Shown here: positions 109 to 44,875 of the stretch, in pieces
Numbering within the stretch: position 1 is the stretch's first letter
Layout: every line of letters begins with the position of its first letter
NCBI GenBank assembly: GCA_020344055.1
Contig: CP070813.1
Span: 295,551 to 359,550, forward strand
Direction: 5' to 3'
Source of the DNA: Candidatus Zixiibacteriota bacterium
Lineage (GTDB): Bacteria > Zixibacteria > MSB-5A5 > UBA10806
DNA length: 64,000 nucleotides
Notes under the pieces: generated by a model
Seen by the model: the letters and a program-made list of their open reading frames with translations, nothing else
What the model was told of the DNA's origin: nothing
The model's database searches: none
Program-made: the position numbers and the translations under genes

Positions 109-825
109 ATGAACAATAAAATTATCGGTATTGCCCTCGTTGGAATATTGCTTTCAGCCGTTCCCGTTTCCGCCCAGGGGCAGGGTGATCTCAATTGTAA
201 TGGTTTTATTGACGTGGCTGATTTAATTACTATCATAAATATTCTTGAATACCCGTGCGAAAGAAACCTCATTGAATGTTGGCGGCGAAGCGGCGATGTC
301 GATGGTGATGGATGGCCGCTGACGATTGGCGATATGTACATAATTCCTTATTTTTTGATCAATGGTTATGGAAACTATCCACCCAATTTTCCGAATCACC
401 CCGAATCCGATACGATTTTAATTGAATCGATCGTTACTGTTCCGGGAGACTCTATATCGTTACCCGTCTGGATAAATACCATTGATACGCTCGTCGCCTT
501 CCAGTTCTGGCTCGAAGTAGATACAGACTATGTAGAATTTGATACCATGATCGTTTATGATTATATACCTGTTAGGCAGTCCAACTGTGGGGGAAATATA
601 TACCTTTATACCCTGTTTGCCGGTTATGACGATCCTATCATTCTCCTGCCGGGGAATTACCATGTTGCGGATATTATAGTTAACATAAAGCTCGAAGATG
701 ACGCACGGGTGACCACATACCTTTCATTCTCCTCCGATCCGCCGCGGATATTGTATTCCGGGTTTGCCAGTTATTCCTTTTTCCGGCCGGTCATGATCGA
801 CGCCGAAATACAGATCGTGCCTTAA
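109..825 (+). CDS. Secreted protein with an N-terminal dockerin-like double repeat and a C-terminal cohesin-like beta-sandwich module
   Basis: Signal peptide MNNKIIGIALVGILLSAVPVSAQG. Two EF-hand-like repeats follow (DLNCNGFIDVADLITIINIL and GDVDGDGWPLTIGDMYIIPYF). The rest (VTVPGDSISLPVWINTIDTLVAFQFWLEVDTDYVEF...ADIIVNIKLEDD...YLSFSS) follows the cohesin pattern. RBS ggaga upstream; TAA stop. Confidence 0.6.
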   Translation: MNNKIIGIALVGILLSAVPVSAQGQGDLNCNGFIDVADLITIINILEYPCERNLIECWRRSGDVDGDGWPLTIGDMYIIPYFLINGYGNYPPNFPNHPESDTILIESIVTVPGDSISLPVWINTIDTLVAFQFWLEVDTDYVEFDTMIVYDYIPVRQSNCGGNIYLYTLFAGYDDPIILLPGNYHVADIIVNIKLEDDARVTTYLSFSSDPPRILYSGFASYSFFRPVMIDAEIQIVP

Positions 826-3485: not shown

Positions 3486-5309
3486 CTATTTCATAAAGAT
3501 CATGCTTCTGGTTTTTCCGGACCGGGTGTCGGATCTCAGACGGTAGTAATAGACGCCCGACGATACATATTTGGCGTAGTCGCTTCTCCCGTTCCAGACT
3601 ATTTCGCGCCGGTTCTCGTCGCTTATCACAAACGTTTTTACGATTTTTCCCTTTATGTCGAAGATTTCGAGGTAAAGCGGAAAAGTCATGTTTGTGACCG
3701 CAATCGGAATGCTGGTCGAGGCGTTGAAGGGATTGGGATAATTCCGTCCTACCATAAGGCCTTTCGGGGCCCCGGCTATCTCCCTGATTCCTCTCATGGT
3801 CGATTGATACAGAGCCGGCGCCGACTCCTGCCCCGCGAGGTCCACGGCCTTAACGCCGATTATGAAATCATCGAAAAGGAAATTTCCGATTTCAAAACGG
3901 TTATCATACAGAATCGAATCCCTTCCGTTAAAGTCGACTACGTAATGGCTGATATCGGGTTCGCGATTATCCATCCAGGTTATGATGTTATCTTCCCGGT
4001 GGTACCGGAAACCGCGAGGGATCAGGGGAGGAGAATCGTATATCGAATAGTAAACCTCCTCGTCTCCGAAAAGATGGGGATTTTCCCTGTTTGTTATATA
4101 GACCAGATGGAGATTTCCATATGAATCGGATGCGATAACCGGTCTCATATTGAAATAATCGCCCGAATTTGTGATCCGAAACGCCCCGGATAAAACGCCC
4201 GTGTTCAGATTGAACCTCTGGTGATAAAGTTGCGTAGTGGGGGAGTTATTTGGCGATTCATACACAAATTCGACGAAATCTCCGTTAATCGTGACGCAGG
4301 GATGACCGCTGGTGTTATCCCTGTTGGATAAAATCATCGGTTCGCTCCAGGATCCGGACCTGTTGGACAAAAATGCGGCCTTGGAATCCGTATCTCTAAT
4401 CTCGAAAGCGACGAAGATTAAATCGGTGCCTCCCTCCAGGGTCGAAACCCCGATATAAGGGAAAAGACAGCTTCTGGTCTCGTTGGGAGTGAGATCTTCA
4501 ATATCCAGAATCTGCGCGGTTCTTATATTCAATGTTAACAGGAAAATATGTCCCACCGGAAATTCGTCGGTTATCACGCGACAGGCCAGATAAACCTTAT
4601 TGTCGCTTCCCGCGCTTGCCGAAAGATGAACGCCCTTGTATGCCAGACCGGTTTCCGGCAAAGTAATCGGCAGCTCCTCCGTGGCAGGTACGCCGCTGTC
4701 ATATATCCTGAAATATACCGGCAGGCTTGCGGGCAGCTCGGTGTTGACATAGGGCCAGAACGTTATCGCCCTGTTTTCGTATACCGCTATGGTCGTCTGC
4801 CAGCCGGTGGATGAAAAGGTCAGGTAATTGCCGCCGGCGGTGGAGACCAGGTCCGATTCAATCCGTCTTGAGGGATGATCGTCAATCCAGGAACCGTATA
4901 ATTCCCCCCCGAACGATTTTTCCTCGACATAAACCGAGAAAAGTTTCCCGTTTGATTGCGGGTATATTGAAGGATGCCCGAACTTTACTACCGAATCTAT
5001 GGTTGAAAGTTCATAATCGGAGGCGTCCCATTTCATCCATGTGGGATCGGGATCCTTTCCTCTGTAATAAATCCTCAATGGATATCCATGCCGCCTGTCC
5101 TCCCAGACGACGTGCACGCGGTTATTTTTATCAACCGAGATAGACCAGGGACAGTCGGCTCCCCGGCTGGCCTGTTTCCCCGATGTCTCCACATTTACAC
5201 GAACATCGCCTTTCCATTCCGAACGGGCGGATTTCGACGCAAGCAATATCAGGCAAAACACCAGCAATGAGAGTAACAGCACGAATTTCCTGAAATTCAG
5301 ATTTTTCAT
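3486..5309 (-). CDS. Secreted protein with a T9SS C-terminal sorting domain; sialidase/BNR-like beta-propeller of unknown function
   Basis: Signal peptide MKNLNFRKFVLLLSLLVFCLILLASKSA. C-terminus GRNYPNPFNASTSIPIAV...GVYYYRLRSDTRSGKTRSMIFMK matches the Por_Secre_tail pattern. The ORF is open to 5369. Confidence 0.6.
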   Translation of the reverse strand: MKNLNFRKFVLLLSLLVFCLILLASKSARSEWKGDVRVNVETSGKQASRGADCPWSISVDKNNRVHVVWEDRRHGYPLRIYYRGKDPDPTWMKWDASDYELSTIDSVVKFGHPSIYPQSNGKLFSVYVEEKSFGGELYGSWIDDHPSRRIESDLVSTAGGNYLTFSSTGWQTTIAVYENRAITFWPYVNTELPASLPVYFRIYDSGVPATEELPITLPETGLAYKGVHLSASAGSDNKVYLACRVITDEFPVGHIFLLTLNIRTAQILDIEDLTPNETRSCLFPYIGVSTLEGGTDLIFVAFEIRDTDSKAAFLSNRSGSWSEPMILSNRDNTSGHPCVTINGDFVEFVYESPNNSPTTQLYHQRFNLNTGVLSGAFRITNSGDYFNMRPVIASDSYGNLHLVYITNRENPHLFGDEEVYYSIYDSPPLIPRGFRYHREDNIITWMDNREPDISHYVVDFNGRDSILYDNRFEIGNFLFDDFIIGVKAVDLAGQESAPALYQSTMRGIREIAGAPKGLMVGRNYPNPFNASTSIPIAVTNMTFPLYLEIFDIKGKIVKTFVISDENRREIVWNGRSDYAKYVSSGVYYYRLRSDTRSGKTRSMIFMK

Positions 5310-5597
5310 CCTCGGCCTCCGCATGCAAATCGGCGATAGTGATTTTTCTTTGACGCCGGGGTATTTCAAAAGGAATCCTGTTCATTTCTTGCGTTACAGC
5401 GTGTAACCGAGTCCTGAATTCGGCCTTGAACCGGGTTGAAAAGAGAAACAACTATTTATTTTTGAAACATCAGGCCCCGGGTCGGTAGAGAAAGAATGGT
5501 ATATCGGCAGCGGGTCTTAAAAATAAGGATTGTGAATTGATAATTATGTTGTATATTGCCGTTGAAGGGATAGAACAAAATTAAAGCGGAGGAGAGC

Positions 5598-8489
5598 ATG
5601 AGGATTCTCACAATCGTTGCGCTGGCATTTTTTCTCGCGGGTACGGCCGTTTCGGGAATGGTAGACCCGGAACTTGAAGCGAGGCTGGAAAATGCCGCCC
5701 CCGATCAGATGTTTGAGACTCTGATCTTTATGAAGGACCAGATCGATCTCGGGGAATTGAAACGGGATCTCCATTTCATAAATGCGACCCGGGCGGAACG
5801 CCACAGACGGGTAATAACGGAGCTGCAGCGTATAGCCACCGAATCCCAGCCCGATATCCTGGCATACTTAACCGATCGAAAGTACACAAGTGCGGTCGGA
5901 GAATTCAGAGGGTTCTGGATATGCAATATGATAGTCGCGGAATTGACGGCCTCCGAGATCTATGCCGTCGCCGCCCGCGATGACGTTGACAAAGTCCACA
6001 GCGATTTCAAGGGAGAATTGATCGAGCCTGTGAAGGTCGGAGGGGCCGATCCTCCGGTCATAAACAGTGTGGAGATCGGCGTCAGGGCCATCAAGGCCGA
6101 CAGTATGTGGGCGCTGGGGTACACCGGCCAGGGGCGGCTGGTCTGCAATATCGATACCGGCGTTGACGGCAACCATATCGCCTTGAGTCAGAGCTGGAGG
6201 GGCGCCAACGGTTATCCCCCGGCGGAGAGCTGGTATGATTCCGCCAATCCCAGCAATACTTTTCCGCATGACGAATACGGTCACGGTACGCATACCATGG
6301 GGACCATATGCGGCAGAAGCGCCAGCGGAACCGATACGGTGGGAGTGGCCATTGACGCCCAGTGGATCGCCTCTCGCGCCGTCGATGTTTCCGGCGGGAA
6401 TATTGCGGCCGCGTTTCAATGGGCCGCCGACCCGGACGGTAATCCCAACACCGTTCATGACGTCCCGGACGCTATCTCGAACTCCTGGGGCTCCATAGGA
6501 AGCTGTCCTCCCAGCTATTACTCGTTGATCGATAACTGCGAGGCCGCGGGGGCGGCGGTGGTGTTCGCCGCCGGGAACGAAGGACCGGGGGCGCAGACGT
6601 TAAGAATCCCCGCCAACAGAATAACCACGCCGTACAACTGCTTCTCGGTGGGGGCGGTAAACGGCGCCAACAGCAGTTACCCCATTGCGTATTTCTCATC
6701 CCGCGGGCCCTCCCAGTGCGACGGCCAAACCATTAAACCGGAAATCGTGGCGCCGGGACTCAACGTGAGATCCTCCACTCCCGGCAACGCCTACTCTTAT
6801 ATGAGCGGAACCTCCATGGCCTGCCCGCACGTGGCCGGCGCCATCGCCCTGTTGCGCCAGGTAAATCCCAACGCCACCGTCGATACCATAAAATGGGCGC
6901 TCATGCAGTCCGCCGCCGACCTCGGAAATCCCGGCGAAGACAATACCTATGGATGGGGAATCATAAACGTCCGCGCCGCCATGGATCTATTGCCCCCCGC
7001 GAACGAACCCTATCTCTTTGTCAGCGCAGCCTACGTGGTCGAACCCAACAACAATTATCCCGATCCGGGCGAAACTATCGACCTTTATATAAGACTCCAG
7101 AATACGGGGATCAGCGTCGATGACGTCGCCGCAGTGATTAGCACCAATGATGCCTATACCACCATAACGTCCGATTCGGTCTTCTACGGCACCGTGGCCG
7201 GAAATGATACATCCGCTACATCCGATCCCTACGTAATGTCTTTTTCAGAGGACACGCCCGTGGGTCATAATGTCGTCTTTGATTTACACATCACCGGGGA
7301 CGGCGGCTATAGCGTTACCAGGAATGTAACGCTTACAATCGGCATGCTGGCCGATCCCGATATAGCCGACCACGATATAGGCAGCGCCCGTTTCACCATC
7401 TCGAATTTCGGCCAGTACGGTCTGGCACCGACCAGCATAAATACTATCTGGAACGGTGTGGGATACAAGATGTCGCCTTACGGTCCCAACTATCTATTCG
7501 AGGGCGCGCTGTTTATCGGCGATGGCCCCACCCGCGTTTCCAACGGCGCCCGCGATGAAAATCAGAATATGGGCGATGATTTTAACGCCGTGACGGATAT
7601 CGTACTCCATGAACCCGGACCTCTCGCCGACCAGGAATATCATACCTCTTTCAACGATCAGAACGCCGCCGAGCCTCTCGGCGTGCTCGTCTCCCAGAAG
7701 TCCTTCGCCTTTTCAACCGCGCCCGATGACGAGTATATCATTACCGAATATACCATCACGAACGCCGGCTTCGACCCGCTGACCGGGGTGCTGGTAGCCC
7801 ACTTTGAAGATTGGGATATTCCGTGGAACACAGCCGACGATATGGTTAATTTCGATAGAAGCAGAAACCTCGGATACCTGTATAACGGCAGCAACTACCG
7901 GGGGCAACAGGTGCTCTCCGATTCGGGGATCTTTTCCTTCATGGCCCTGGATAATGCCGTTCATGTCTATCCGCCCGCTTTTACGCTGTCCGATAAATGG
8001 AGCTATATGAACGCCGGGATAATCGATACCGCCATCACCTCCATAAGGGATTGCTCCATAATAATAACCACCGGCCCATATGATCTCGCGCCGGGCCAGC
8101 AAGCGGTCGCCGCCTTTTCGATTCTCGGCGGAAACTCTCTCGCGGATCTGCAGGCCAACGCCGATGCCGCTATCGCCCGTTACGGCCTCATGACGTCGAT
8201 TGATGATGATTTCGCCGAACTGCCCGAACAGTTTTCTCTCTCTCAGAACTATCCCAACCCGTTTAACGCCAGAACGACCATAAGCTTCTCCGTACCGGTA
8301 TCGGGGCAGGTTCTAATCGAGGCTTTCGACCTGCTTGGCAGAAAAGTCGAGACAATTCTCGATGCCCATCTTGAAGCCGGGAACCATACCGCTCTATGGG
8401 ACTGTTCGAATCTGTCCTCCGGGATATATTTCTACAGACTTACCGCGGGAGATGAATCCGCGGTCAGGAAAATGACTTTAATAAAATAG
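5598..8489 (+). CDS. Subtilisin-like serine protease (peptidase S8) with an N-terminal propeptide and a T9SS C-terminal sorting domain
   Basis: Catalytic triad motifs NIDTGVDGNH, HGTHTMGTICG, GTSMACPHVAGAIALL. Signal peptide MRILTIVALAFFLAGTAVSG. C-terminal LSQNYPNPFNARTTISFSV...GIYFYRLTAG...KMTLIK. RBS gcggaggag upstream. Confidence 0.92.
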   Translation: MRILTIVALAFFLAGTAVSGMVDPELEARLENAAPDQMFETLIFMKDQIDLGELKRDLHFINATRAERHRRVITELQRIATESQPDILAYLTDRKYTSAVGEFRGFWICNMIVAELTASEIYAVAARDDVDKVHSDFKGELIEPVKVGGADPPVINSVEIGVRAIKADSMWALGYTGQGRLVCNIDTGVDGNHIALSQSWRGANGYPPAESWYDSANPSNTFPHDEYGHGTHTMGTICGRSASGTDTVGVAIDAQWIASRAVDVSGGNIAAAFQWAADPDGNPNTVHDVPDAISNSWGSIGSCPPSYYSLIDNCEAAGAAVVFAAGNEGPGAQTLRIPANRITTPYNCFSVGAVNGANSSYPIAYFSSRGPSQCDGQTIKPEIVAPGLNVRSSTPGNAYSYMSGTSMACPHVAGAIALLRQVNPNATVDTIKWALMQSAADLGNPGEDNTYGWGIINVRAAMDLLPPANEPYLFVSAAYVVEPNNNYPDPGETIDLYIRLQNTGISVDDVAAVISTNDAYTTITSDSVFYGTVAGNDTSATSDPYVMSFSEDTPVGHNVVFDLHITGDGGYSVTRNVTLTIGMLADPDIADHDIGSARFTISNFGQYGLAPTSINTIWNGVGYKMSPYGPNYLFEGALFIGDGPTRVSNGARDENQNMGDDFNAVTDIVLHEPGPLADQEYHTSFNDQNAAEPLGVLVSQKSFAFSTAPDDEYIITEYTITNAGFDPLTGVLVAHFEDWDIPWNTADDMVNFDRSRNLGYLYNGSNYRGQQVLSDSGIFSFMALDNAVHVYPPAFTLSDKWSYMNAGIIDTAITSIRDCSIIITTGPYDLAPGQQAVAAFSILGGNSLADLQANADAAIARYGLMTSIDDDFAELPEQFSLSQNYPNPFNARTTISFSVPVSGQVLIEAFDLLGRKVETILDAHLEAGNHTALWDCSNLSSGIYFYRLTAGDESAVRKMTLIK

Positions 8490-13506: not shown

Positions 13507-14078
13507 AACGCACCTCTCTTTTCAGCCTCCGCAGAGGAAAATCCCCCTGCCGAGTATTTATATCCAGCATAAAAAGATAAGTTTGCGAAATACGGTTGTC
13601 AATATTTTTGGATGGCATCATGGACACCCGTTTACATTCTTGGAGGCGATGGGATGTGGGTAGGCCGCAGGCAGTCGGAAGCCCGGTTTACCGTCGAATA
13701 GCCCTGATCGCGACTGGAAAAGGTATCTTTGCGCTCGATATCACCCCGTAATAACCCCGACCTTACAGCCGGGGTGTAATACTGAAAAAAAACCTTGACA
13801 GAGCTTTAAAATGGATTATTTTGTTCACAATTGCTACTTTGATTATGCCTCATTGATTGTCTTCGGGAATTCAATATTGCGCTTTGACTGAAATGAATCC
13901 CTGCGAAAAAAATGAAAATCAGGATTATTCCGATCTCGTTGTCAATGCCGTCGGCTGCGGTATTTTCTCTAAAAGAATGGGGATACTGTTCGGCCATATA
14001 TTAATCCTGTAACTGGTCGGGAGCCAATGCTCGGGGATTTAAAAAAAATCATAACATTATAAAGATAAGGAGGTAATC

Positions 14079-15371
14079 TTGAAACTGGCAGTTTTAGCTT
14101 TGTTGGGGAGTGTATTATTTATTTTCACCAGTGTTTCATTAGCCCAGGCGCCGGATACCTTCTGGACAAGGATATATGGCGGGACATTCACTGACTGCGG
14201 TTATTCGGTTCAACAGACCTCTGACGGCGGATACATCATTGCCGGATATACGGAGTGCTTCGGTGCAGGTTTGGCGGATGTCTGGCTTATAAAGGCAGAT
14301 AACATCGGCGACACCCTCTGGGCGAGGACATACGGGGGACAAAATATCGATATTGGATATTCAGCTGACATTACTTCCGACGGCGGATTCATTATTGCAG
14401 GGCAAACGCAATCCTTCGGCGCGGGTGGTTCGGATGTTTATCTTATAAAGACAGATGCCAGCGGCGATACTCTGTGGACAAAAACATATGGAGGAACCGG
14501 TAATGACATCGGCTGGTCGGTTGAACAAACCTCTGATGGTGGATATATCATTGCCGGAAACACAACTTCGTTCGGTGCGGGCTCTAATGACGTCTGGCTT
14601 ATAAAAACAGATTCCAACGGGGATACGGCCTGGACAAAGACCTACGGGGGAGCAGATTCCGATGGAGGACGTTCTGTTCAGCAGACCTCTGACGGCGGAT
14701 ACATCATTACCGGAACCACATGGTCATTCGGCCCGGGTGAATATGATATTTACCTGATAAAGACAGACTCCTCCGGCGATACGCTCTGGACCCGGGCATA
14801 TGGCAGTGCGCTTTATGACTACGGTTATTCCGTCGATGTTACCTCCGATAGTGGATACATAGTCGCGGGATGCTGGCAAACGACGGTCCATCCTTACGAC
14901 AATAAGGCGGCTTATCTGATTAAGACGGATACCGGCGGCGATACTCTCTGGACGAAGATCATACCCTTTCCATGGCCGTATGTCACGGAAGAGGCTTTCT
15001 CGGTTCAGCAGACCTCCGATGACGGGTATATCGTCGGCGGGTACTCAGATCCGTACTATGGGCAGTCCAATTATGCTCTTCTTGTTAAAACGGATTCCGC
15101 CGGTGATACGCTCTGGGTAAGGAGATTTCGACTTGTCGACCAACCTTATCAACACCATGCATTTTATTCTGTTCAGCAGACCGCTGACGGCGGATATGTC
15201 GCCGTCGGGTATGGAAGGGGTTGGGATCTTTATTTCCTGAGAGGAGCCTATTTCCCCACCATCCCCACCCTCTCCGAATGGGGTATTCTCATAATGGGGT
15301 TGCTGCTGCTGGCTGTCGGAACAGCGGCCATTGTCAGAAGAAGGAGAACGGAATCGAGAGTACTGAATTAA
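14079..15371 (+). CDS. Secreted tandem-repeat (~47 aa x8, beta-propeller-like) protein with a C-terminal IPTL-CTERM sorting domain
   Basis: TTG start with RBS aaggagg 8 nt upstream. Signal peptide MKLAVLALLGSVLFIFTSVSLAQA. Repeats W(T/A)(R/K)TYGG..D.G.SV.QTSDGGYIIAG.T.SFGAG..DV(W/Y)LIKTD..GDTLW. C-terminal IPTLSEWGILIMGLLLLAVGTAAIVRRRR (15261-15368). Confidence 0.75.
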   Translation: MKLAVLALLGSVLFIFTSVSLAQAPDTFWTRIYGGTFTDCGYSVQQTSDGGYIIAGYTECFGAGLADVWLIKADNIGDTLWARTYGGQNIDIGYSADITSDGGFIIAGQTQSFGAGGSDVYLIKTDASGDTLWTKTYGGTGNDIGWSVEQTSDGGYIIAGNTTSFGAGSNDVWLIKTDSNGDTAWTKTYGGADSDGGRSVQQTSDGGYIITGTTWSFGPGEYDIYLIKTDSSGDTLWTRAYGSALYDYGYSVDVTSDSGYIVAGCWQTTVHPYDNKAAYLIKTDTGGDTLWTKIIPFPWPYVTEEAFSVQQTSDDGYIVGGYSDPYYGQSNYALLVKTDSAGDTLWVRRFRLVDQPYQHHAFYSVQQTADGGYVAVGYGRGWDLYFLRGAYFPTIPTLSEWGILIMGLLLLAVGTAAIVRRRRTESRVLN

Positions 15372-15603: not shown

Positions 15604-15675
15604 TACAGAAGACGGCTTGCCGAATATTGAATAGCTCAGCTTCGCTTTAAAACTGCTGCTTTGCGGAGGCTGGTT

Positions 15676-17088
15676 GTGCGCAATAGATTAATATTATACG
15701 GCCTTATTATTGCTTGCATGCCCCTGACATTATGGGCTGCGGTCATCCATGTCCCCGGCGATTGCCCCGCCATCCAGGCGGCGGTCGATTCCTGTGCCGG
15801 AGGCGATACGGTCATGGTCGCGCCCGGAGTTTATTCCGGCGATGGCAACCGTGATATATCCATCTTGGCAATATCTATTACCGTCATCAGTTCCGATGGC
15901 CCGCTGTGGACTATTATCGACGGTGGGAACGGCTATAAAGGCTTCAATATAATCGGTGGCGGGGCGCCTGCCACCGTCATAGAGGGCTTTACCATCCAAA
16001 ACGTCTCCTACGGGGTTTACTGCGATTCCGCTTCCGTTGTCATGAATAACGTCATCATCGAGGATTTCCTGTTCCGGGCGATTCACTTCGACGGTTTTTT
16101 ATACGACCCGCCGTTAACAGCCGATATCGATGAGTGTATAATTCACCAGATAGATCCATCATACCAGGGGACCGGCATAGGCTTCCGCGGAGCCCGGAGC
16201 GTTATCGTGTCGGTATACGGATCTATATTCAGCGATTGCCTTTACGGTTTCGAATTTCATACCCTTGAAAATCGGGTTCCCAATTTCGATATCCAAAAAT
16301 GCGTCGTTAGAAACAATCTGCTCGACGGTATCTGGACTCATTCGTGACACCAGCTTTCGCCGGCGGGTTCGGCGCAATACTGTAATTTCTCGGGCAACGA
16401 CAACTACGATATCCGCGCCGAGGCCTGCAGCGATCCCAACACCGTTATCGACGGCCGCTACAACTTCTGGGTCCGGACCGATTCGGCCAGCATAGCCGAT
16501 AGCTGCATCTTCGATCATCTTGACGATCCCGAGGCCCCCACAGTCGATTTCATGCCTTTCCTGTCCCAGCCGGGCGTGGCCGTTATCGCCGGCGTCGTTA
16601 CCGACGATTCGCTGAACCCCATCGACGCGGTGATAGTGCACGTCGAGGGGCAGATATTCTCCGACACCACCGATATAAACGGCGAATATATGATTGCCGG
16701 GCTGCAGATGGGGTATTGCGATATCTCGTTTTCGCATGACCTTTATGATGACTCCGTGGTTACCGGCCTGTTCGCCGTGATACGCGACACCGCCGTTGTC
16801 GACATGGTCCTCTTCGAATGTACCGCGGACAATTACGTGGTCGGCGACGTTAACGAGAGCGGCGACTACAACGGCCTCGATATAATTTACGGGGTCGCCT
16901 ATTTCAAAGGCGGCGACCCCCCGCCATTTCGATGCATCTGCCCGCCCCACGGGGTCTGGCATCTGGCCGGCGACGTCAACGCCAGCTGCAGCTACAACGG
17001 CCTCGATATTACCTACGGGGTCAACTACCTCAAAGGGATAATCCCGGAACGGCTCCCCTGCCCCGACTGCCCGCCGATCGGGTCGTAG
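15676..17088 (+). pseudogene. Secreted right-handed beta-helix (pectate-lyase-like PbH1) + CarboxypepD_reg-like + dockerin-like-tail protein, interrupted by one in-frame TGA (16345-16347)
   Basis: ORFs 15661..16347 and 16552..17088 are in the same frame. Manual translation across the single TGA is continuous and sensible (...DGIWTHS*HQLSPAGSAQYCNFSGNDNYDIRAEACSDPNTVIDGRYNFWVRTDS...). N-terminal AVIHVPGDCPAIQAAVDSCAGGDTVMVAPGVYSG is the classic PbH1 start. C-terminal CTADNYVVGDVNESGDYNGLDIIYGVAYFKGG...CPDCPPIGS tail. Confidence 0.6.
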
Positions 17089-17138
17089 GCGGTCGGTTCA
17101 TCCGGCCGCGCATAAACCCCTTGACACCTTCTACTGAG

Positions 17139-17291
17139 CCGTCAGGAATCCTTTCCTGACGGTTTAAGACCACCTCAATTGTCATTCCCGAAATCGCTAA
17201 TCGGGAATCTATTATGGGCCAGTTGCAGTAGGTCGAAAGGCTTGCCTTTCGACAACCAGAGTGTCGAAACCATAAAGGTTTCGACCTACTG
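17139..17291. repeat. Cluster of short structured repeat modules: GTCAGG...CCTGACGGTTTA hairpin, attcccga...tcgggaat hairpin, and a 66-nt double hairpin
   Basis: GTCAGGaatcctttCCTGAC (17139-17160); gtcATTCCCGAaatcgctaaTCGGGAATc; cagtaggtcgaaaggcttgcctttcgacaaccagagtgtcgaaaccataaaggtttcgacctactg (17226-17291) holds two perfect hairpins (10-bp and 9-bp stems) plus an outer inverted repeat. The same modules recur at 18523-18680 in a different order. Confidence 0.6.
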
Positions 17292-17296
17292 CCTTC

Positions 17297-17500
17297 CCGC
17301 GTCCGTAGGCGGTCGGTTCATCCGGCCGCGGCCAAGTAGCGATCACGAATGCAAATTCGACAATCCACTTGACAGCAAGTTAAAATGGATTATCTTATAC
17401 ACACAACACGTTCGGCCTACTTTGATCGACTGCAAGGCTGAAATTGGATACGACGAGTTAGCGCCTTTGGATAGACAAACAGATTCAACGGAGGTCTGAG
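17297..17500 (+). promoter_or_regulatory. Conserved ~200-nt promoter/5' leader module shared with the 19007 gene
   Basis: Starts GTAGGCGGTCGGTTCATCCGGCCGCG (near-palindromic hairpin), then ...GCAAATTCGACAATCCACTTGACAGCAAG with a TTGACA -35-like hexamer at 17369-17374, then a conserved RBS region aacGGAGGtctgagGTG. It aligns with 18812-19006 along its whole length; a 27-nt identical fragment also sits at 17085-17111. Confidence 0.5.
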
Positions 17501-18514
17501 GTGAAGAGAGTTATTTCGTATTTTTCCAGATTGATTTTTATAGCTTGCCCCTTACTCGTATTTGTTTTTTCAAATGCCCGCCCAACGGAAAGGATGGTAT
17601 TAGGGGAGTTTTTTAATAATACAGGATGTCCCTACTGTCCTCCGGCAAGCCAGGTTTTGGACCAGTTAGTACAGAATTATGATTCAAACTTCGTTTCAAT
17701 CAGGTATCACATATGGTGGCCATTCTCAAACGATCCTTTCTGGCTGTACAATCAAGGCGAAATCGAGATAAGAAAAATTTACTATAATATTAGTTCCGTG
17801 CCACGTTGTTTTTTTGATGGATCTATTGATGGGGGCGGCGCCTACGGGAATTGGGAGACAATAGTCCAGGATCGAATCTTAGTTGACTCGCCGCTGGACA
17901 TCAGATCTTTTGCAGCTTTTGATAGCGTTTCTTTAACCGGCGATTTAAATATATATGTTATCGCGACGTCTAATATTTCGCAATCCGATTTAAAATTGAG
18001 AATCGCCATTACGGAAAATAACCTGGATTATGGCGGCAGTACATATAATCAGGTTTTCAGGGATATGATTCCGAGTACTGAAGGGATACCTTTTATTATA
18101 ACGGAGGGAGATACGGTAGAGTTTTTTGAGCAATATAGCTGCCCCGCGCCTTTGATTTATCAAAATTGTGAAATTGTCGTTTTTGTACAATCCGATGTTG
18201 ACAGGGAAATACTTCAGTGTAATAGGATAAAAATCCCGGAGGATCTGGTGGCGTGCAACTACGTAGTTGGGGATATCAACGGCAGCGACAGCTATAATGG
18301 TCTCGATGTAACCTACGGCGTGGCCTACCTCAAGGGCGGCAGCCCACCGCCGTTCTCCTGCGAATGTCCCCCGCACGGCGCCTGGTACGTGGCCGGCGAC
18401 GTTAACGCCAGCTGCAATTACAACGGTTTGGATATTACCTACGGCGTTAATTACCTCAAGGGGGTAATACCCATACTGCTCCCCTGCCCCGACTGCCCGC
18501 CGTCAGGGGAGTAA
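17501..18514 (+). CDS. Secreted thioredoxin/glutaredoxin-like (CPYC motif) protein with a dockerin-like Cys-containing C-terminal tail
   Basis: GTG start with GGAGG 8 nt upstream; signal peptide. VLGEFFNNTGCPYCPPASQVLDQLVQNY has a thioredoxin-fold beta-alpha layout with a CxxC. C-terminal CNYVVGDINGSDSYNGLDVTYGVAYLKGG...CECPP...GDVNASCNYNGLDITYGVNYLKG...PCPDCPPSGE (18254-18511). Confidence 0.6.
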   Translation: MKRVISYFSRLIFIACPLLVFVFSNARPTERMVLGEFFNNTGCPYCPPASQVLDQLVQNYDSNFVSIRYHIWWPFSNDPFWLYNQGEIEIRKIYYNISSVPRCFFDGSIDGGGAYGNWETIVQDRILVDSPLDIRSFAAFDSVSLTGDLNIYVIATSNISQSDLKLRIAITENNLDYGGSTYNQVFRDMIPSTEGIPFIITEGDTVEFFEQYSCPAPLIYQNCEIVVFVQSDVDREILQCNRIKIPEDLVACNYVVGDINGSDSYNGLDVTYGVAYLKGGSPPPFSCECPPHGAWYVAGDVNASCNYNGLDITYGVNYLKGVIPILLPCPDCPPSGE

Positions 18515-18522
18515 ATGCGTTA

Positions 18523-18680
18523 CAGTAGGTCGAAAGGCTTGCCTTTCGACAATCCGAGTGTCGAAACCATAAAGGTTTCGACCTACGCAACTGCCCGCCG
18601 GTGGGGCCGTAACAACCCATGCGCCGTCATGAATCCGATCCTGACGGTTTATTGTGTCATTCCTGCGAAAGCAGGAATCC
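18523..18680. repeat. Second copy of the structured repeat modules (double hairpin, GTCA(t)G..CCTGACGGTTTA, attcctgc-gaaa-gcaggaat hairpin)
   Basis: cagtaggtcgaaaggcttgcctttcgacaatccgagtgtcgaaaccataaaggtttcgacctac (18523-18586) is near-identical to 17226-17289. Followed by cctgacggttta and gtcATTCCTGCgaaaGCAGGAATcc. Confidence 0.6.
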
Positions 18681-18754
18681 ATAAAGAAAGGCCATTATGG
18701 ATGCCGGATCAAGTCCGGCACGACGATAAGATGATCTGAGATTAATTGTTTATT

Positions 18755-18797
18755 TAATTATATCCGTATCTTTTCTAGCTCCGCCTCCCCCGCCTAC
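18755..18797. repeat. 45-bp direct repeat copy A; a fragment identical to the 3' end plus stop of the PP-loop gene at 21563
   Basis: TTAATTATATCCGTATCTTTTCTAGCTCCGCCTCCCCCGCC. On the minus strand it would encode ...GEAELEKIRI*, matching the C-terminus of the 21563..22573 protein. Pairs with 21553-21597. Confidence 0.7.
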
Positions 18798-18811
18798 GCT
18801 ATCTGCTGGCT

Positions 18812-19006
18812 GTAGGCGATCGGTTCATCCGGCGGCGAGCAGGTAACGATAATGAACGCAAATTCGAAAATTCACTTGACAGCAATCTATTATCAATTAA
18901 CTTATAGCAGCAACGAAACTTGCCCGCTTTGATCAACTGCGTATTTGAGATGAAGACATTGGCAGAAAGCCTAAAAATAGATAAATAGATTCATCGGGGG
19001 TCTGAG
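18812..19006 (+). promoter_or_regulatory. Second copy of the conserved promoter/5' leader module
   Basis: GTAGGCGATCGGTTCATCCGGCGGCG...GCAAATTCGAAAATTCACTTGACAGCAAT (TTGACA at 18876-18881) ... ttcatcGGGGGtctgagATG. Alignable to 17297-17500, with more divergence in the 3' half. Confidence 0.5.
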
Positions 19007-21427
19007 ATGATGAGGATTTTAGTTTCCGGTTTTTCATTATTTTTCTTAATGATATCGTTACCTACATCCATCAGCAATACGCAGTCCACACTTGACGAAG
19101 ATCCGCAAGAGCACCAGGCAATGACAAATCTATTTTCTTTACCATTTTACTTTACAGAAAATCTTGGACAATGGGGAGAAAAAACGCTTTTCAAAACCGA
19201 GACCGTTGGAGCATCTTTCTATTTTTGTAAAGACGAAGTGGCATATCTATTTGTAAGGAAAACGGACGAATTAATGGATGAGGATTCTTCCATCCGCAAA
19301 ATGATGGGAATGGATGATAAATTTTATAGGCCGCCGTATAAGAAAGAAGCCGTTCTCGTGAAAGTTCAGTTTTTGAATGCCAATCCCAATCCCGAAGTCA
19401 TTGGTATTGATCGTTTGTCTCACAATAATAATTACTTTTATGGCAACGATCCTTCATTGTGGCAAACGAATGCACGTAATTATTCGGCAATTGCATACAA
19501 GGATATATACGCTGGAATCGATCTAAAATATCGCGCCAATGGCAGATCGATGAAGTATGATTTTATTGTCAATCCCGGTGCTGATTATTCGCAAATTCGG
19601 CTTCGCTTTGACGGTATAGAGGATTTAAGTGTCACAGCCACAGGCGATTTGCTGATAGAAACGTCACTTAACCCAGTTTACGAAAAGGCTCCTTCCATTT
19701 ATCAGGAAATCAAGGGAGAAAAACGGGAAATATCAGGCCGATATAATGTAACGGAGCCGGGAATCCTTAGTTTTGCTTTGGAAGAAGAATTTAATCCTCA
19801 TTATCCATTAATTATTGATCCAGAACTACTCTTCAGCACATATCTTGGAGGATCCGATGCAGATGAGATGTTCGAAATAGCTCTCGATACAGATAACGAT
19901 GTCTATGTTTGTGGCATTAGCGATTCCTATGATTTTCCGCTCCTCAATCCCTACGATAGCACAGTTAACGGCAATGACGCGGTAGTTTCAAAATTCGCAT
20001 CGTCAGGGGAAACGCTATTATATAGCACTTTCATAGGCGGTGGGCAATCCGACGTAGCTTATGATATAACGGTTGACCTTAACGGTAATGCGTATGTTAC
20101 CGGTATAGCTTATTCGTCCAATTTTCCGGTTATAAATGGTTATGATGAGATTTTCGATGGTGGCGCCGATGCATTCGTACTTAAATTATCAAGAGAAGGC
20201 GATTCTCTAGAGTATAGTACATTTCTGGGAGGAGGTGGCGGAGAGGTCGGTCGTGGTATCTGCCTAGATTATGAAAATAACGCATACATTACAGGCTACA
20301 CGAACTCTTCGGATTTCCCCATCGTTAATGCATATGATGAATACCTGGGAGGGATTGACGATGTTTTTATAACAAAATTATCATCGTTCGGGAATAGCCT
20401 TATATATAGCACTTACCTTGGTGGATCATCGGATGAACAGGCCCGCGGTATCGATGTTGATTCCGAAGGAAACGCATTTGTAACTGGATATACATCCTCT
20501 TCAGATTTTCCTGTGGTTAACGCATATGATGATAGCTATAACGGAAATATCGACGTATTTGTAAGTGGATTATGGCAGACGGGCGATTCACTCATATATA
20601 GTACTTATATAGGTGGAAGTGACGAAGATAGGGGCGCCGGAGTGGTTGTTGATATAAACGGTAATACGTATATAACCGGAACTACGCTCTCTTCGGATTT
20701 TCCAACTATACAAGCTTTGGACAGTAGCTACAATGGCGATCTGGACGGTTTTGTGTGCAAAATGCCACCTATTGGCAATTCTATAACATATAGTTCTTAT
20801 TTTGGTGGATCTGGAGATGATGGAGGTACGGATATTTGCGTAGATATATGTGAAAATGTATATATTACCGGAGGAACGTTCTCGCCTGATTTTCCGACAT
20901 TTAATGCATATGATTCCACCTACAATAATTGGCATGATGTATTCGTTATCAAACTATTCTCGACAGGAAACATCATTATATATAGCACTCTTTTAGGCGG
21001 AGGCTTTAGAGAGATCGCATATGGTATCAGCATCGATTCGGCAGGAAGCGCATATATTACGGGATATACCATGTCTTCAGATTTTCCGCTCGTCAATCCC
21101 TGTTTTGGAAATTTCGCCGGTTCATTTGATGCGTTTGTGGCCAAATTTGGGCCAAGTTTGGATACGGTTTGCATTTATGTAATTGGCGATGTTAATGCCA
21201 GCGGTGATTACAATTCTCTCGATATATCATTTGGAGTAACATATTTCAAGGGCGGCGAATTTCCGATTTGCGAACCTTGTTGGCTATGTAGTGATTGGTA
21301 CTATTGCGGTGATGTCAACGGTAGCTGTAATTATAATGGGCTGGATATTACGTATGGTGTCAGGTATCTTAAAGATGAACTACCAGAACTAATCCCTTGT
21401 CCCGACTGCCAACTAACGATGCAGTAG
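19007..21427 (+). CDS. Secreted SBBP-type beta-propeller repeat protein with a dockerin-like Cys-containing C-terminal tail
   Basis: Signal peptide MMRILVSGFSLFFLMISLPTS. Repeated units YSTFLGG...D.g.GI.vD..GNAYvTG.T.SSDFP..NAYD (x8-9) follow the SBBP pattern. C-terminal CIYVIGDVNASGDYNSLDISFGVTYFKGG...CGDVNGSCNYNGLDITYGVRYLK...PCPDCQLTMQ (21170-21424). By eye this gene is lower in GC than its neighbours. Confidence 0.7.
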   Translation: MMRILVSGFSLFFLMISLPTSISNTQSTLDEDPQEHQAMTNLFSLPFYFTENLGQWGEKTLFKTETVGASFYFCKDEVAYLFVRKTDELMDEDSSIRKMMGMDDKFYRPPYKKEAVLVKVQFLNANPNPEVIGIDRLSHNNNYFYGNDPSLWQTNARNYSAIAYKDIYAGIDLKYRANGRSMKYDFIVNPGADYSQIRLRFDGIEDLSVTATGDLLIETSLNPVYEKAPSIYQEIKGEKREISGRYNVTEPGILSFALEEEFNPHYPLIIDPELLFSTYLGGSDADEMFEIALDTDNDVYVCGISDSYDFPLLNPYDSTVNGNDAVVSKFASSGETLLYSTFIGGGQSDVAYDITVDLNGNAYVTGIAYSSNFPVINGYDEIFDGGADAFVLKLSREGDSLEYSTFLGGGGGEVGRGICLDYENNAYITGYTNSSDFPIVNAYDEYLGGIDDVFITKLSSFGNSLIYSTYLGGSSDEQARGIDVDSEGNAFVTGYTSSSDFPVVNAYDDSYNGNIDVFVSGLWQTGDSLIYSTYIGGSDEDRGAGVVVDINGNTYITGTTLSSDFPTIQALDSSYNGDLDGFVCKMPPIGNSITYSSYFGGSGDDGGTDICVDICENVYITGGTFSPDFPTFNAYDSTYNNWHDVFVIKLFSTGNIIIYSTLLGGGFREIAYGISIDSAGSAYITGYTMSSDFPLVNPCFGNFAGSFDAFVAKFGPSLDTVCIYVIGDVNASGDYNSLDISFGVTYFKGGEFPICEPCWLCSDWYYCGDVNGSCNYNGLDITYGVRYLKDELPELIPCPDCQLTMQ

Positions 21428-41974: not shown

Positions 41975-43396
41975 ATGAAGAGGTTTGGTATTACGATTAT
42001 GTTTATTTTTTCGGCGGTATCATATACCGGGGCGCAGGATACGCTCTGGACCGGCCATTATGGCCTTATTGACACCACTGAATTGGGCTATTGCGGGGAT
42101 ATTACATCTGATGGAGGGTTTATCGTGGGAGGCGAGTCGAGCAAATTTCTTAACGGGGATATGTGGCTGGTTCGTTGCGATGCAAACGGCGATACTCTAT
42201 GGACTCGTAATTACGGCGCCGCGAGGTGGCAAATGGCCTATTCCGTTATTCAGACGTCAGATGAAGGCTTTATCGCCTGCGGCGAATATAGCGTGGCCGT
42301 GGGTGATTATGATATGTACGTGGTTCGAGTCGACCCCGCGGGCGATACCCTGTGGACTCGCCTGTTCGGGACCGTGGATCAGAATGATTATGGAAGAGAA
42401 ATTATTCAGACCTCCGATGGAGGTTTCCTGGCGCTGGGTCAAGGATATGGTACCAGCGGCTCCAGCGACCTCTATATGGCCAAAATAGATGAATCCGGAA
42501 ATCTGACCTGGAGCAAAACATACGGTTATAGCGGCGGTAGCGAATACGGCTATGGAGCGGTGCAGTTGCCTGACGACGGATATGCGATTGCCGGAAGCTA
42601 TGCCTATTTGTCAACCTCGGATCTCTGGCTTTTGAGAACCGATTCCAACGGGGACACTCTGTGGACCGAGAGATTTGATTTTCATGGTGATGTAGATCGA
42701 GGGGATGATATCGAGATAGCCGACGACGGTGGATTTGTAATTGCCGGGAGGACGAAAAATGCCGGAAACATGCGCCTTTTAACCATGAAAACCGATTCGC
42801 TCGGAAATATGCTCTGGTGGCGCGAATATGGTAGCTCCAGTTCCGATTTCGCCGAATCGATCGATAAAACCTCGGATGGCGGCTTTGTTATCTGCGGCGG
42901 AGCTAACGCTTATCCCTTTGATTTCTTTGTTGTTCGTATAAGCGCCATCGGTGACTCCCTTTGGGCCGGTATATATGATTATGATGGAATACCAGGAGAT
43001 TCCGATGATTCCTTCGAGGTAAGAGTCCATCCAAATGGAGATATAATGGTGTTCGGCTACGCCGACGTCAAAACCGGCACCGGCGCCGACAACGACTTCT
43101 GGGTTGTTAAAATACATGATGGCGCCCTTCAGCAACCGGGTTGCGAGTACGCTGTGGGCGACGCCAACAACAGCGGCAGCCTTAACGGCCTGGATGTCAC
43201 CTATGGCGTGGCCTTTTTCAAGGGAGGCCCCATGCCTCCGTACGAGTGCGAATGCACGCCGGGGAACACCTGGTTTGTGGCCGGCGACGTTAACGCCTCC
43301 TGCTCCTATAACGGCCTTGATATAACATATCTGGTGAATTACTTTAAAGGCGGATCGGATGTCGAACCGTGCGCCGACTGTCCGCCGGCCGGTTAA
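41975..43396 (+). CDS. Secreted beta-propeller-like tandem-repeat protein with a dockerin-like Cys-containing C-terminal tail (paralog of 14079 and 43415)
   Basis: Signal peptide MKRFGITIMFIFSAVSYTGAQ. Repeats WTR.YG...TSDGGF...G...DMWLVR.D.NGDTLW. Tail CEYAVGDANNSGSLNGLDVTYGVAFFKGG..CECTP...GDVNASCSYNGLDITYLVNYFKGG..PCADCPPAG (43142-43393). Confidence 0.75.
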   Translation: MKRFGITIMFIFSAVSYTGAQDTLWTGHYGLIDTTELGYCGDITSDGGFIVGGESSKFLNGDMWLVRCDANGDTLWTRNYGAARWQMAYSVIQTSDEGFIACGEYSVAVGDYDMYVVRVDPAGDTLWTRLFGTVDQNDYGREIIQTSDGGFLALGQGYGTSGSSDLYMAKIDESGNLTWSKTYGYSGGSEYGYGAVQLPDDGYAIAGSYAYLSTSDLWLLRTDSNGDTLWTERFDFHGDVDRGDDIEIADDGGFVIAGRTKNAGNMRLLTMKTDSLGNMLWWREYGSSSSDFAESIDKTSDGGFVICGGANAYPFDFFVVRISAIGDSLWAGIYDYDGIPGDSDDSFEVRVHPNGDIMVFGYADVKTGTGADNDFWVVKIHDGALQQPGCEYAVGDANNSGSLNGLDVTYGVAFFKGGPMPPYECECTPGNTWFVAGDVNASCSYNGLDITYLVNYFKGGSDVEPCADCPPAG

Positions 43397-43414: not shown

Positions 43415-44875
43415 GTGGCGGAGTATAAAATGAAAAAATCTGTATTTCTGGCAATCGCGTTCTCGCTTTTTGTCTCAAACGCTCTCGTGGCGCAGGATAG
43501 TCTCTGGAGCAGGTTTTACGGGCATACCGGAAATGGAGGAGTTTTTGACAGCGATCGCGGAATGTGCGGAACTGTCGCCTCGGATGGGGGTTATGCTATC
43601 GGAGGCGTTTCTTACGCGTTCCAGGGGCTGCTGTCCGAATTCTGGCTGGTTAGAACTGACTCAAACGGGGATACACTCTGGACAAGAAATTACGGGACCG
43701 TCGGATTTGAAGAAGCTCATTATCTGATCCAGACCGATGACGGCGGGTACGTATTATGCGGCGACACCAAACCCTCGGGAGGAAATTATAATTTATATAT
43801 AGTCAGAACCGATTCGCTGGGCGATACCCTCTGGACCCGGAGTTTCGGTTCGCCCGCCGGCGACGATAAAGGATGGGCTATTGTCCAGACCGATGACGGC
43901 GGATTTCTGGCGGTCGGCCACGGGTACGGGTCCGGCTGGGATGTTTATATGGTCAGGTTGAATGAATCCGGAGACTCTTTATGGTCGAAAAAATATGGCG
44001 GAAGCCATCCGGATGCCGCCTACGGAGTCACGCAAACGGCCGACGGCGGTTTTGCCCTGGTCGGGCAGTATGCCAACGATGACTTTGGCGATACCGATCT
44101 GTGGTTATTACGCGTCGATTCTCTGGGCGATACTCTCTGGACCCGGAAATACAGCTACAGCGGCGGATGGTCTCGAGGTGAAGCTATCGCGAAAACCTCC
44201 GACGGAGGGTTCGTTATCGCCGGTCAAAACTGGCTGACACTGACCAATGTTGTGATGCTTCTGGTTCGTACCGATTCCCTGGGCAACGAAATCTGGCATA
44301 AAGAATACGGAGGCCCCAATATCGATAACGCCATGTCGCTCGATATCACCTCCGACGGCGGAATTGTTGCCGGGGGACAAACCGATTCCTTCGGTGGCGG
44401 CAACAAAGATTTTTACATTGTCAGGACCGATTCGAGCGGTGATTCTCTTTGGTCAGCGGTTTTCGGCCATAACGGAATCGATTATTGCCACGAAATCAGG
44501 GTCGATCCGTCCGGCGATATAATGGCTTTCGGCCAGCACCATATATACGGCAGCCAGGATTTCGACTACTGGATGATAAAGATAGCCGACAGTACCGCGC
44601 AAAGTGGATGCGAGTATGTCGTCGGCGATGTCAATGACAGCGACAGCTATAACGGTCTTGATATCACTTATGGGGTCAACTTCTTCAAGGGCGGTTCCGA
44701 TCCGATGTGTCCTTTCGGTTCCTGTTCTATTTCTCCTTGCGACACGTTTTTCTACTGCGGAGATGTCAATGGCAGCTGTTCGTATAATGGCTTAGATATT
44801 ACCTACGGGGTTGCGTATTTCAAAAGCGGTCCCGATCCGATTCCCTGCCCCGATTGCCCGCCGACGGGCGATTAA
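43415..44875 (+). CDS. Secreted beta-propeller-like tandem-repeat protein with a dockerin-like Cys-containing C-terminal tail
   Basis: Signal peptide MKKSVFLAIAFSLFVSNALVAQ. Same repeat family. Tail CEYVVGDVNDSDSYNGLDITYGVNFFKGG..CGDVNGSCSYNGLDITYGVAYFKSG..PCPDCPPTGD (44609-44872). Confidence 0.75.
   Translation: MAEYKMKKSVFLAIAFSLFVSNALVAQDSLWSRFYGHTGNGGVFDSDRGMCGTVASDGGYAIGGVSYAFQGLLSEFWLVRTDSNGDTLWTRNYGTVGFEEAHYLIQTDDGGYVLCGDTKPSGGNYNLYIVRTDSLGDTLWTRSFGSPAGDDKGWAIVQTDDGGFLAVGHGYGSGWDVYMVRLNESGDSLWSKKYGGSHPDAAYGVTQTADGGFALVGQYANDDFGDTDLWLLRVDSLGDTLWTRKYSYSGGWSRGEAIAKTSDGGFVIAGQNWLTLTNVVMLLVRTDSLGNEIWHKEYGGPNIDNAMSLDITSDGGIVAGGQTDSFGGGNKDFYIVRTDSSGDSLWSAVFGHNGIDYCHEIRVDPSGDIMAFGQHHIYGSQDFDYWMIKIADSTAQSGCEYVVGDVNDSDSYNGLDITYGVNFFKGGSDPMCPFGSCSISPCDTFFYCGDVNGSCSYNGLDITYGVAYFKSGPDPIPCPDCPPTGD

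Follow-up and report, generated by a model that had tools for sequence, protein, structure and literature searches.

The IPTL-CTERM family of sorting domains has been described as largely beta/gamma-proteobacterial, and the product name of its exosortase (XrtH), "exosortase H, IPTLxxWG-CTERM-specific", incorporates the signature motif, as does the name used by JGI for XrtH homologues, 'exosortase H (IPTLxxWG-CTERM-specific)'. This system shares its tripartite tail logic and its enzyme superfamily with the PEP-CTERM system and exosortase A (XrtA, EpsH), and the XrtH proteins considered here match the exosortase/archaeosortase signature TIGR04178. The two systems differ in the motif, which is PEP in one and IPTLxxWG in the other, and in the enzyme, with XrtH representing a minimal form (~160-175 aa) in comparison with the larger, 8-TM EpsH. 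An EPS gene cluster was seen neither beside the gene described below nor beside xrtH in related genomes.

The sole experimentally dissected member of the superfamily is archaeosortase A, which acts on PGF-CTERM proteins in Haloferax volcanii and takes off the C-terminal helix, leaving a covalent lipid anchor (review PMC6098224). It is thus the experimental precedent for cleavage and lipid attachment, and the model for the mechanism proposed here. However, archaeosortase A is archaeal, is associated with another motif and operates in a single-membrane envelope; lipidation of XrtH products would follow by analogy only, and these products would in addition have an outer membrane to pass. In the literature searched, there is no biochemical study of XrtH or of an IPTL-CTERM protein, and nothing relevant was found on exosortases in Zixibacteria. 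Outside the Proteobacteria, the S-layer protein mela_00855 of Methylomirabilis lanthanidiphila is predicted to have an IPTL-CTERM domain (PMC8671808), and provides a precedent for IPTL-CTERM cargo at a diderm cell surface, albeit with an ectodomain that is unrelated to the protein studied here. Alternative sorting tails have also been described as "suffixes" on homologous families (Haft & Varghese 2011, PMC3237569), and tail exchange on homologous cargo is a principle published since 2011, not a new one.

The gene at 14079..15371 of the window (the whole 64-kb stretch of DNA that was analysed) is complete, lies on the + strand and encodes a 430-aa IPTL-CTERM propeller protein. It starts with TTG, 5 nt after a Shine-Dalgarno sequence, AAGGAGG, that can be read directly from the DNA (14067..14073, +). 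Inspection of the N-terminus indicates a Sec-type signal peptide (aa 1-24, 14079..14150, +), MKLAVLALLGSVLFIFTSVSLAQA with PD following the predicted cleavage site, which has no lipobox Cys; in an AF2 model, residues 2-21 are helical and a break of low confidence follows at 23-25. The exact protein is already public as UCC80029.1, "IPTL-CTERM sorting domain-containing protein", from a 3.83-Mb contig of a Candidatus Zixiibacteriota MAG.

The signal peptide is followed by seven ~52-aa repeats (aa 25-392, 14151..15254, +), which repeat dissection and the AF2 model both resolve as a 7-bladed beta-propeller. The repeats are anchored on the motif GDTLW, and the blade units begin near aa 25, 77, 129, 181, 233, 287 and 342. 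Using 54 homologues as alignment input, the model (pLDDT 89.3, pTM 0.83) has 28 strands, corresponding to seven four-stranded blades, with one helix preceding them at the N-terminus and another (398-429) at the C-terminus. The closest PDB structure is the propeller of CylK (7RON, 7FH6), with a Foldseek E-value of 1.8e-23, TMq of 0.72-0.74 and 21-22% identity. The C-terminal beta-propeller of CylK is of the same SBBP-like kind, but CylK has an additional N-terminal domain and is an enzyme, and there is no sign of that catalytic function in the 14079 protein; on the predicted model, the match gives the fold of the protein and not its function. Repeat models were matched below their cut-offs (NF047494, 49.7 vs 400; TIGR02608, 36.4 vs 76.5; PF17164, 14 vs 27), and the SBBP, delta-60 and DUF5122 families are kin at the level of the CylK-like, 7-bladed propeller fold only.

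The protein terminates in ...FPTIPTLSEWGILIMGLLLLAVGTAAIVRRRRTESRVLN, and this extreme C-terminus contains all three elements of the tail. The signature motif IPTLSEWG (aa 395-402, 15261..15284, +), placed by HMM matches and by the sequence itself, follows the last propeller strand after a linker of only ~4 residues. Next are a hydrophobic transmembrane segment, ILIMGLLLLAVGTAAIV (aa 403-419, 15285..15335, +), which lies within the C-terminal helix of the AF2 model, and a basic cluster, RRRR (aa 420-423, 15336..15347, +). A 7-residue cytoplasmic end, TESRVLN, precedes the stop codon (15369-15371). The original prediction had quoted these C-terminal letters correctly and had recognized an IPTL-CTERM tail in them, and two models agree: aa 395-422 score 25.8 bits (E 9.2e-6) on TIGR04174 (IPTL_CTERM), for which the cut-off is 20.5, and the tail reaches 23.8 bits on PF18203, where the gathering score is 20.8. 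No match to the T9SS C-terminal sorting domain (TIGR04183 / PF18962) was detected in this protein. A back-translated IPTLSEWG pattern occurs once in the 64-kb window, compared with 0.01 occurrences expected from shuffles, and this is the one IPTL tail within the window. As a protein-search query, the 50-aa tail alone is too short for the size of the database and returned just two fragments. In full-length orthologue comparisons, however, the tail is kept in P0005 (83% identity), P0009 (78%) and P0105 (46%), all of which score above the TIGR04174 cut-off. Judged by its sequence, the tail is a true member of the IPTL-CTERM domain family, and the 14079 protein is an ordinary, already-annotated case of a known surface-protein sorting system.

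The system is widespread among related genomes. A scan of one genome per species with the restrictive pattern PTLSEWG..IM produced 84 loci, and IPTL tails were recovered from Ignavibacteria, Acidobacteriota, Planctomycetota, Verrucomicrobiota, Desulfobacterales and Bacteroidia as well as from Zixibacteria. With this pattern, the closed Zixibacteria genome CP070742.1 has at least six IPTL tails, and five other MAGs have 3-9 each. All five of the full-length CP070742.1 tail proteins scanned pass TIGR04174 (26.6-30.8 bits), and three tail proteins of this genome are named IPTL-CTERM by NCBI. Unrelated proteins of related genomes share near-identical tails, [IV]PTLSEWG.[IL]IM[GA]LLLLA.GT.A..RRR, on cargo that includes FG-GAP-like repeats, peptidase-like proteins, DUF7901 and other repeat proteins; such near-identity of tails across unrelated cargo is what marks a sorting domain. 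The closest relative, CBFCYP01 (sample ERZ25073475), is ~81% identical at the nucleotide level over syntenic parts and contains the orthologue P0005. In that genome, a DUF7901 protein with the C-terminal series IPTLNEWG, helix and RKRKR is encoded 0.6 kb from xrtH. A cluster check of eight IPTL proteins from relatives added no further members from the genome of the 14079 protein. Overall, the 14079 protein resembles described IPTL-CTERM/XrtH substrates in its motif, transmembrane helix, basic cluster and signal peptide, and in having relatives in which the cargo varies within each genome. It differs from the family as described in its host, a Zixibacteria MAG, in a helix consensus particular to the Zixibacteria lineage, (M/I)(L/I)IMGLLLLAVGTVAVVRRRK, and in a shortened XrtH entry (vide infra). 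The XrtH/IPTL-CTERM system is thereby documented as common in Zixibacteria and in several other non-proteobacterial phyla.

A weak secondary match of the 14079 tail to NF033207, "midcut-by-XrtH", led to exosortase H being sought as its partner. Such an associated processing enzyme is on record: UCC79704.1 (P0244), deposited as "exosortase H, partial", scores 92 bits on TIGR04177 against a cut-off of 86. It was found through the 90% clusters and derives from a contig of 3,831,389 bp, equal in length to that of UCC80029.1, and is taken as the exosortase H of the same Zixibacteria genome; the two protein accessions are 325 apart, and xrtH is not adjacent to the 14079 gene. A search with the CP070742.1 enzyme returned dozens of Zixibacteria homologues named exosortase H. 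The original prediction therefore holds with respect to both the TIGR04174 match and the existence of a cognate enzyme, although its significance is small, given that the protein and exosortase H are already correctly named in GenBank.

The main caveat concerns the length of the enzyme. The catalytic residues of the exosortase/archaeosortase superfamily lie in conserved Cys, Arg and C-terminal His-containing segments. At 142 aa, UCC79704.1 aligns with positions 3-128 of the 158 in the profile and is missing the last ~32 residues. Its Cys segment (VVDGCNG) and Arg segment (NLVRV) are present, but it stops ahead of the EVHVYVWQ segment that is conserved in the full-length relatives P0123, P0124 and P0125. 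The short entry may be due to the end of a contig, to an indel introduced during assembly or to a genuinely truncated gene.

The 14079 protein is likely to be a cell-envelope substrate of the IPTL-CTERM/XrtH sorting system. The Sec signal peptide would carry it over the inner membrane, with cleavage after LAQA, and the seven-bladed propeller would fold outside the cytoplasm while the C-terminal helix and RRRR anchor the protein transiently in the inner membrane. XrtH, which belongs to the exosortase/archaeosortase superfamily and is a small, polytopic membrane enzyme, would then read IPTLSEWG at the membrane surface, remove the helix and, as in the archaeosortase A model, join the freshly exposed C-terminus to an acceptor, either a lipid or an envelope component. 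The end state would be a propeller tethered through its last blade, with almost no stalk. We infer the cleavage, the acceptor, the final location and any ligand or activity of the propeller, the first two by analogy only. Surface display is plausible in light of the Methylomirabilis S-layer precedent.

The strongest competitor is a permanent C-terminal transmembrane anchor, in which the propeller would remain periplasmic on the inner membrane and would never be processed, either owing to a defective XrtH or because the protein is not a substrate. The loss of the last ~32 residues from the deposited XrtH is compatible with this arrangement, as is the linker of ~4 residues between the last blade and the motif, which could restrict enzyme access, and XrtH biochemistry is absent from the literature searched. 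However, the eight-residue IPTLSEWG is kept down to 46% overall identity and is common to unrelated proteins, which is more than a plain anchor needs. Similarly short linkers are found in P0105 and in other IPTL proteins. Moreover, the XrtH fragment aligns gap-free with the full-length XrtH of CP070742.1 at 89% identity, and so appears to have been functional recently or merely to have been cut by assembly or annotation. A permanent anchor is accordingly regarded as unlikely, and processing by XrtH is the preferred reading.

The identity of the processing enzyme can be assessed from the genes that neighbor IPTL tails in other genomes. An exosortase-family ORF falls inside the 8-kb locus in nine of the 84 loci, and in six of the eight loci scanned, XrtH (TIGR04177) ranks first and passes its cut-off. 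These six loci are from Burkholderiaceae, Methylococcales, Blastocatellia, Planctomycetes, Verrucomicrobiota and the Zixibacteria genome CP070742.1, in which xrtH is within 8 kb of IPTL-tailed genes and scores 118.7 bits against 86. Recognition of the tail by a different or additional system, such as another exosortase subfamily, would find some encouragement in two loci. In L016, the exosortase beside an IPTL-tailed gene is XrtM-like, although it falls below both cut-offs (XrtM, 107.5 vs 125 bits; XrtH, 65.4 vs 86), and in L034 the two models are nearly equal (XrtM 91 and XrtH 87 bits), so that this enzyme passes XrtH narrowly while matching XrtM slightly better. Against this, the Zixibacteria enzymes beside IPTL tails, together with the one assigned to the genome of the 14079 protein, all score best on TIGR04177 and above its cut-off, and the Zixibacteria homologues named exosortase H number in the dozens; involvement of another system is considered quite improbable. 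Finally, a chance resemblance, in which any hydrophobic helix followed by arginines might match, is scarcely credible: with 27-28 positions the IPTL-CTERM model is short, and the cut-offs are exceeded by just ~3-5 bits, but the exact IPTLSEWG in orthologues, the near-identity of tails on unrelated Zixibacteria proteins through the helix and the shuffle expectation of 0.01 for the window effectively exclude it, and a cognate exosortase H is on record for what is taken as the same genome.

The window contains two further members of the same repeat family, at 41975..43396 (+; 32% identical to the 14079 protein, BLASTP E 4e-53) and 43415..44875 (+; 36%, E 6e-64), which are 47% identical to one another and are mutual closest relatives. 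The original prediction was correct in assigning a shared architecture to these three proteins, but its repeat period of ~47 aa must be revised to ~52 aa, in seven copies. It was also correct in noting that both siblings end differently from the 14079 protein: each has a Cys-rich, double dockerin-like module (~43109-43393 and ~44573-44872, both +) at its C-terminus.

A third type of tail is present in the window. T9SS C-terminal domains were detected by HMM at 3486-5369(-), 5598-8489, 50204-52318(-), 55447-57645 and 57661-59850, with TIGR04183 scores of 27.7 and 36.6 (cut-off 23) and PF18962 scores of 34.9, 30.5 and 37.3 (cut-off 27). XrtH/IPTL-CTERM is thus shown alongside T9SS in one cell. 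The carriers are a subtilase, an LVIVD propeller and cohesin/Ig proteins, and in a comparison within the window none of the five has the 14079-type repeat. The suggestion that one organism runs three targeting modes on paralogous cargo is therefore right as to the three tail types, but the T9SS domains of the window are on other cargo, and the dockerin-like module is more likely to serve in binding than in sorting (vide infra).

Beyond the window, the propeller is frequently paired with a T9SS tail. Homologues from WOR-3, TA06, Ignavibacteria and other FCB-group lineages are 51-58% identical to the 14079 protein, and most have a T9SS CTD. T9SS-tailed examples from WOR-3, TA06 and Ignavibacteria (among them P0010, P0055, P0047 and P0092) share the ~52-aa repeat at this level of identity over ~360-420 aligned residues, and have an ~80-aa Por_Secre_tail (PF18962) in contrast to the 36-aa IPTL tail of the 14079 protein. 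This substitution implies that the T9SS carries these homologues over the outer membrane, in place of processing by an exosortase at the inner membrane. Of the 120 best homologues, four end in IPTL tails, no fewer than 53 in T9SS-type tails and a few in ordinary dockerin-like or PEP-CTERM-like tails, and the rest have other or truncated ends. The window siblings, at 32-36%, are the most distant members compared.

A comparison of tail type with propeller phylogeny, as the original prediction envisaged, was made with a neighbour-joining tree of the propeller region, which is star-like and has no support values. In this tree, the IPTL clade P0001/P0005/P0009 is nested in T9SS-tailed sequences, P0105, also IPTL-tailed, is placed apart from that clade and beside the T9SS-tailed P0092, and the 41975 and 43415 siblings form the outgroup. 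Tail type does not track the propeller, and the IPTL tail occurs at least two times in the tree; tail exchange is therefore real at the family level and has happened more than once. The modular shuffling that was initially proposed is supported to this extent, but it is not a recent event among paralogues within the genome. Given that the siblings are 32-36% identical to the 14079 protein, less than the 51-58% of T9SS-tailed homologues in other phyla, the window proteins are, on these sequence identities, old paralogues and not products of recent in-genome shuffling. One well-folding propeller with natural IPTL, T9SS and dockerin-like ends represents a matched-cargo panel for XrtH biochemistry.

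The dockerin-like module is a conserved ~90-aa region that forms the C-terminus of six window proteins. The motif GDVN(G/A)S(C/D)SYNGLDITYGV.YFKGG occurs in it twice, with Cys residues on either side, and the module terminates in PC(P/A)DCPP. Each copy has DxNxSxxxNxxD spacing, which we take to be that of the dockerin Ca2+ loop. Matches to PF00404 (Dockerin_1) reach 19.3 bits, compared with a gathering score of 22.9, and a profile of the six window tails, compared with the PDB, matches only type I dockerins, weakly but with both repeats aligned (E 0.08-0.3). An AF2 model built from the six window sequences has a pLDDT of 35, too low for use. Cohesin-domain matches are found in two T9SS-tailed window proteins, at 57661-59850 (24.7 vs 24.1 bits) and 55447-57645 (15.5 bits). 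Taken together, the doubled Ca-loop pattern, the weak type I dockerin matches and the cohesin matches in T9SS-tailed neighbors suggest that the module is probably a binding domain that docks on surface cohesins, and not a third sortase-type signal.

A broader arrangement can be suggested tentatively, although it is more doubtful than the XrtH assignment itself: Zixibacteria might spread the propeller family and other cargo over XrtH/IPTL anchoring, T9SS export and a disulfide-rich dockerin that binds T9SS-anchored cohesins (57661-59850, 55447-57645), with tails repeatedly exchanged. If true, this three-route display would amount to a cohesin-dockerin assembly of a non-cellulosomal kind on the cell surface of an uncultured phylum of the FCB group, and the cohesin/Cys-dockerin lead is of more interest than the IPTL tail.

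Two other candidates were discarded. Selenocysteine at an in-frame TGA at 16345 was rejected because the hairpin downstream is no better than shuffles (z 0.82). An in-frame fusion of the Cys-dockerin module to an IPTL tail was sought in a metagenome scan, in which 27 loci matched CPP...PTLSEWG but none of them contained a dockerin-like module. The idea of such a fusion came from the CP070742.1 locus (L055), a single case in which the two are out of frame.

Two neighboring proteins with a type IX secretion system (T9SS) C-terminal domain, encoded on the plus strand at window positions 55447-57645 and 57661-59850, match the Pfam Cohesin model, with scores of 15.5 bits and 24.7 bits (gathering score 24.1), respectively. 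Six further secreted proteins within the window end in a conserved cysteine-rich double dockerin-like module, located at 16801-17085, 18227-18511, 21140-21424, 43109-43393, 44573-44872 and 47538-47822. The presence of both Cohesin matches and all six tails in one window suggests that Zixibacteria possess a cohesin-dockerin surface assembly, predicted from sequence, for which T9SS would be the anchoring route.

Among the proteins with this tail, one has an interrupted reading frame. The listed ORFs at 15661-16347 and 16552-17088 (plus strand) form a single continuous frame, 15661-17088, encoding a NosD-like beta-helix followed by the cysteine-rich tail and broken only by a lone in-frame TGA at 16345-16347 (...IWTHS-TGA-HQLSP...). 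This codon could mark a pseudogene, stem from faulty assembly or be recoded; the hairpin downstream of the TGA was no better than those of shuffled sequences (z 0.82). The tail is also found on an Omp28-like protein (17501-18514, plus strand), for which the top NCBIfam match is the 'Omp28-related selenoprotein' model, at 53.5 bits far below the cut-off of 200. Separately, a small secreted protein at 109-825 (plus strand) has an ordinary, non-cysteine dockerin-like repeat, GDLNCNGFIDVADLI, close to its N-terminus, with a Dockerin_1 score (16.3 bits) below the gathering score.

The region separating the IPTL-CTERM-tailed gene from the ThiI-domain gene varies between genomes. In the window (15661-21427), it contains three genes with cysteine-rich dockerin-like tails, whereas the corresponding region in a relative at ~81% nucleotide identity (locus L001, 1804-3685) instead contains a pair of unrelated genes on the minus strand, one encoding 185 and the other 443 amino acids.

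In the closed Zixibacteria genome CP070742.1 (773-1220 of locus L055, minus strand), a 112-amino-acid gene consists solely of a signal peptide and the cysteine-rich dockerin-like module. Its TAG stop codon is directly followed by a complete IPTL tail, VPTLSEWGMLIMGLLLLVLGTVAVVRKRAALSKAA, offset by one frame, and fusion of the two would take the loss of one A within CAACAAATTAG. A metagenome scan for a comparable in-frame fusion found none.

Very small ORFs, of ~83-141 amino acids and some in tandem, occur in six loci from Acidobacteriota MAGs (L042, L057, L069, L070, L071 and L077). They encode hardly more than an EEIPTLSEWG(F/L)(I/V)IMG tail preceded by a signal peptide, and are possibly mini-substrates or precursors of the exosortase H (XrtH) system. 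Finally, in a gammaproteobacterial MAG (locus L016, 4086-4640, minus-strand frame), an exosortase gene adjoins an IPTLSEWG-tailed gene. This exosortase scores higher against XrtM, another exosortase subfamily (107.5 bits, cut-off 125), than against XrtH (65.4 bits, cut-off 86), with both scores below cut-off. The pairing of motif and enzyme may be looser than one-to-one.
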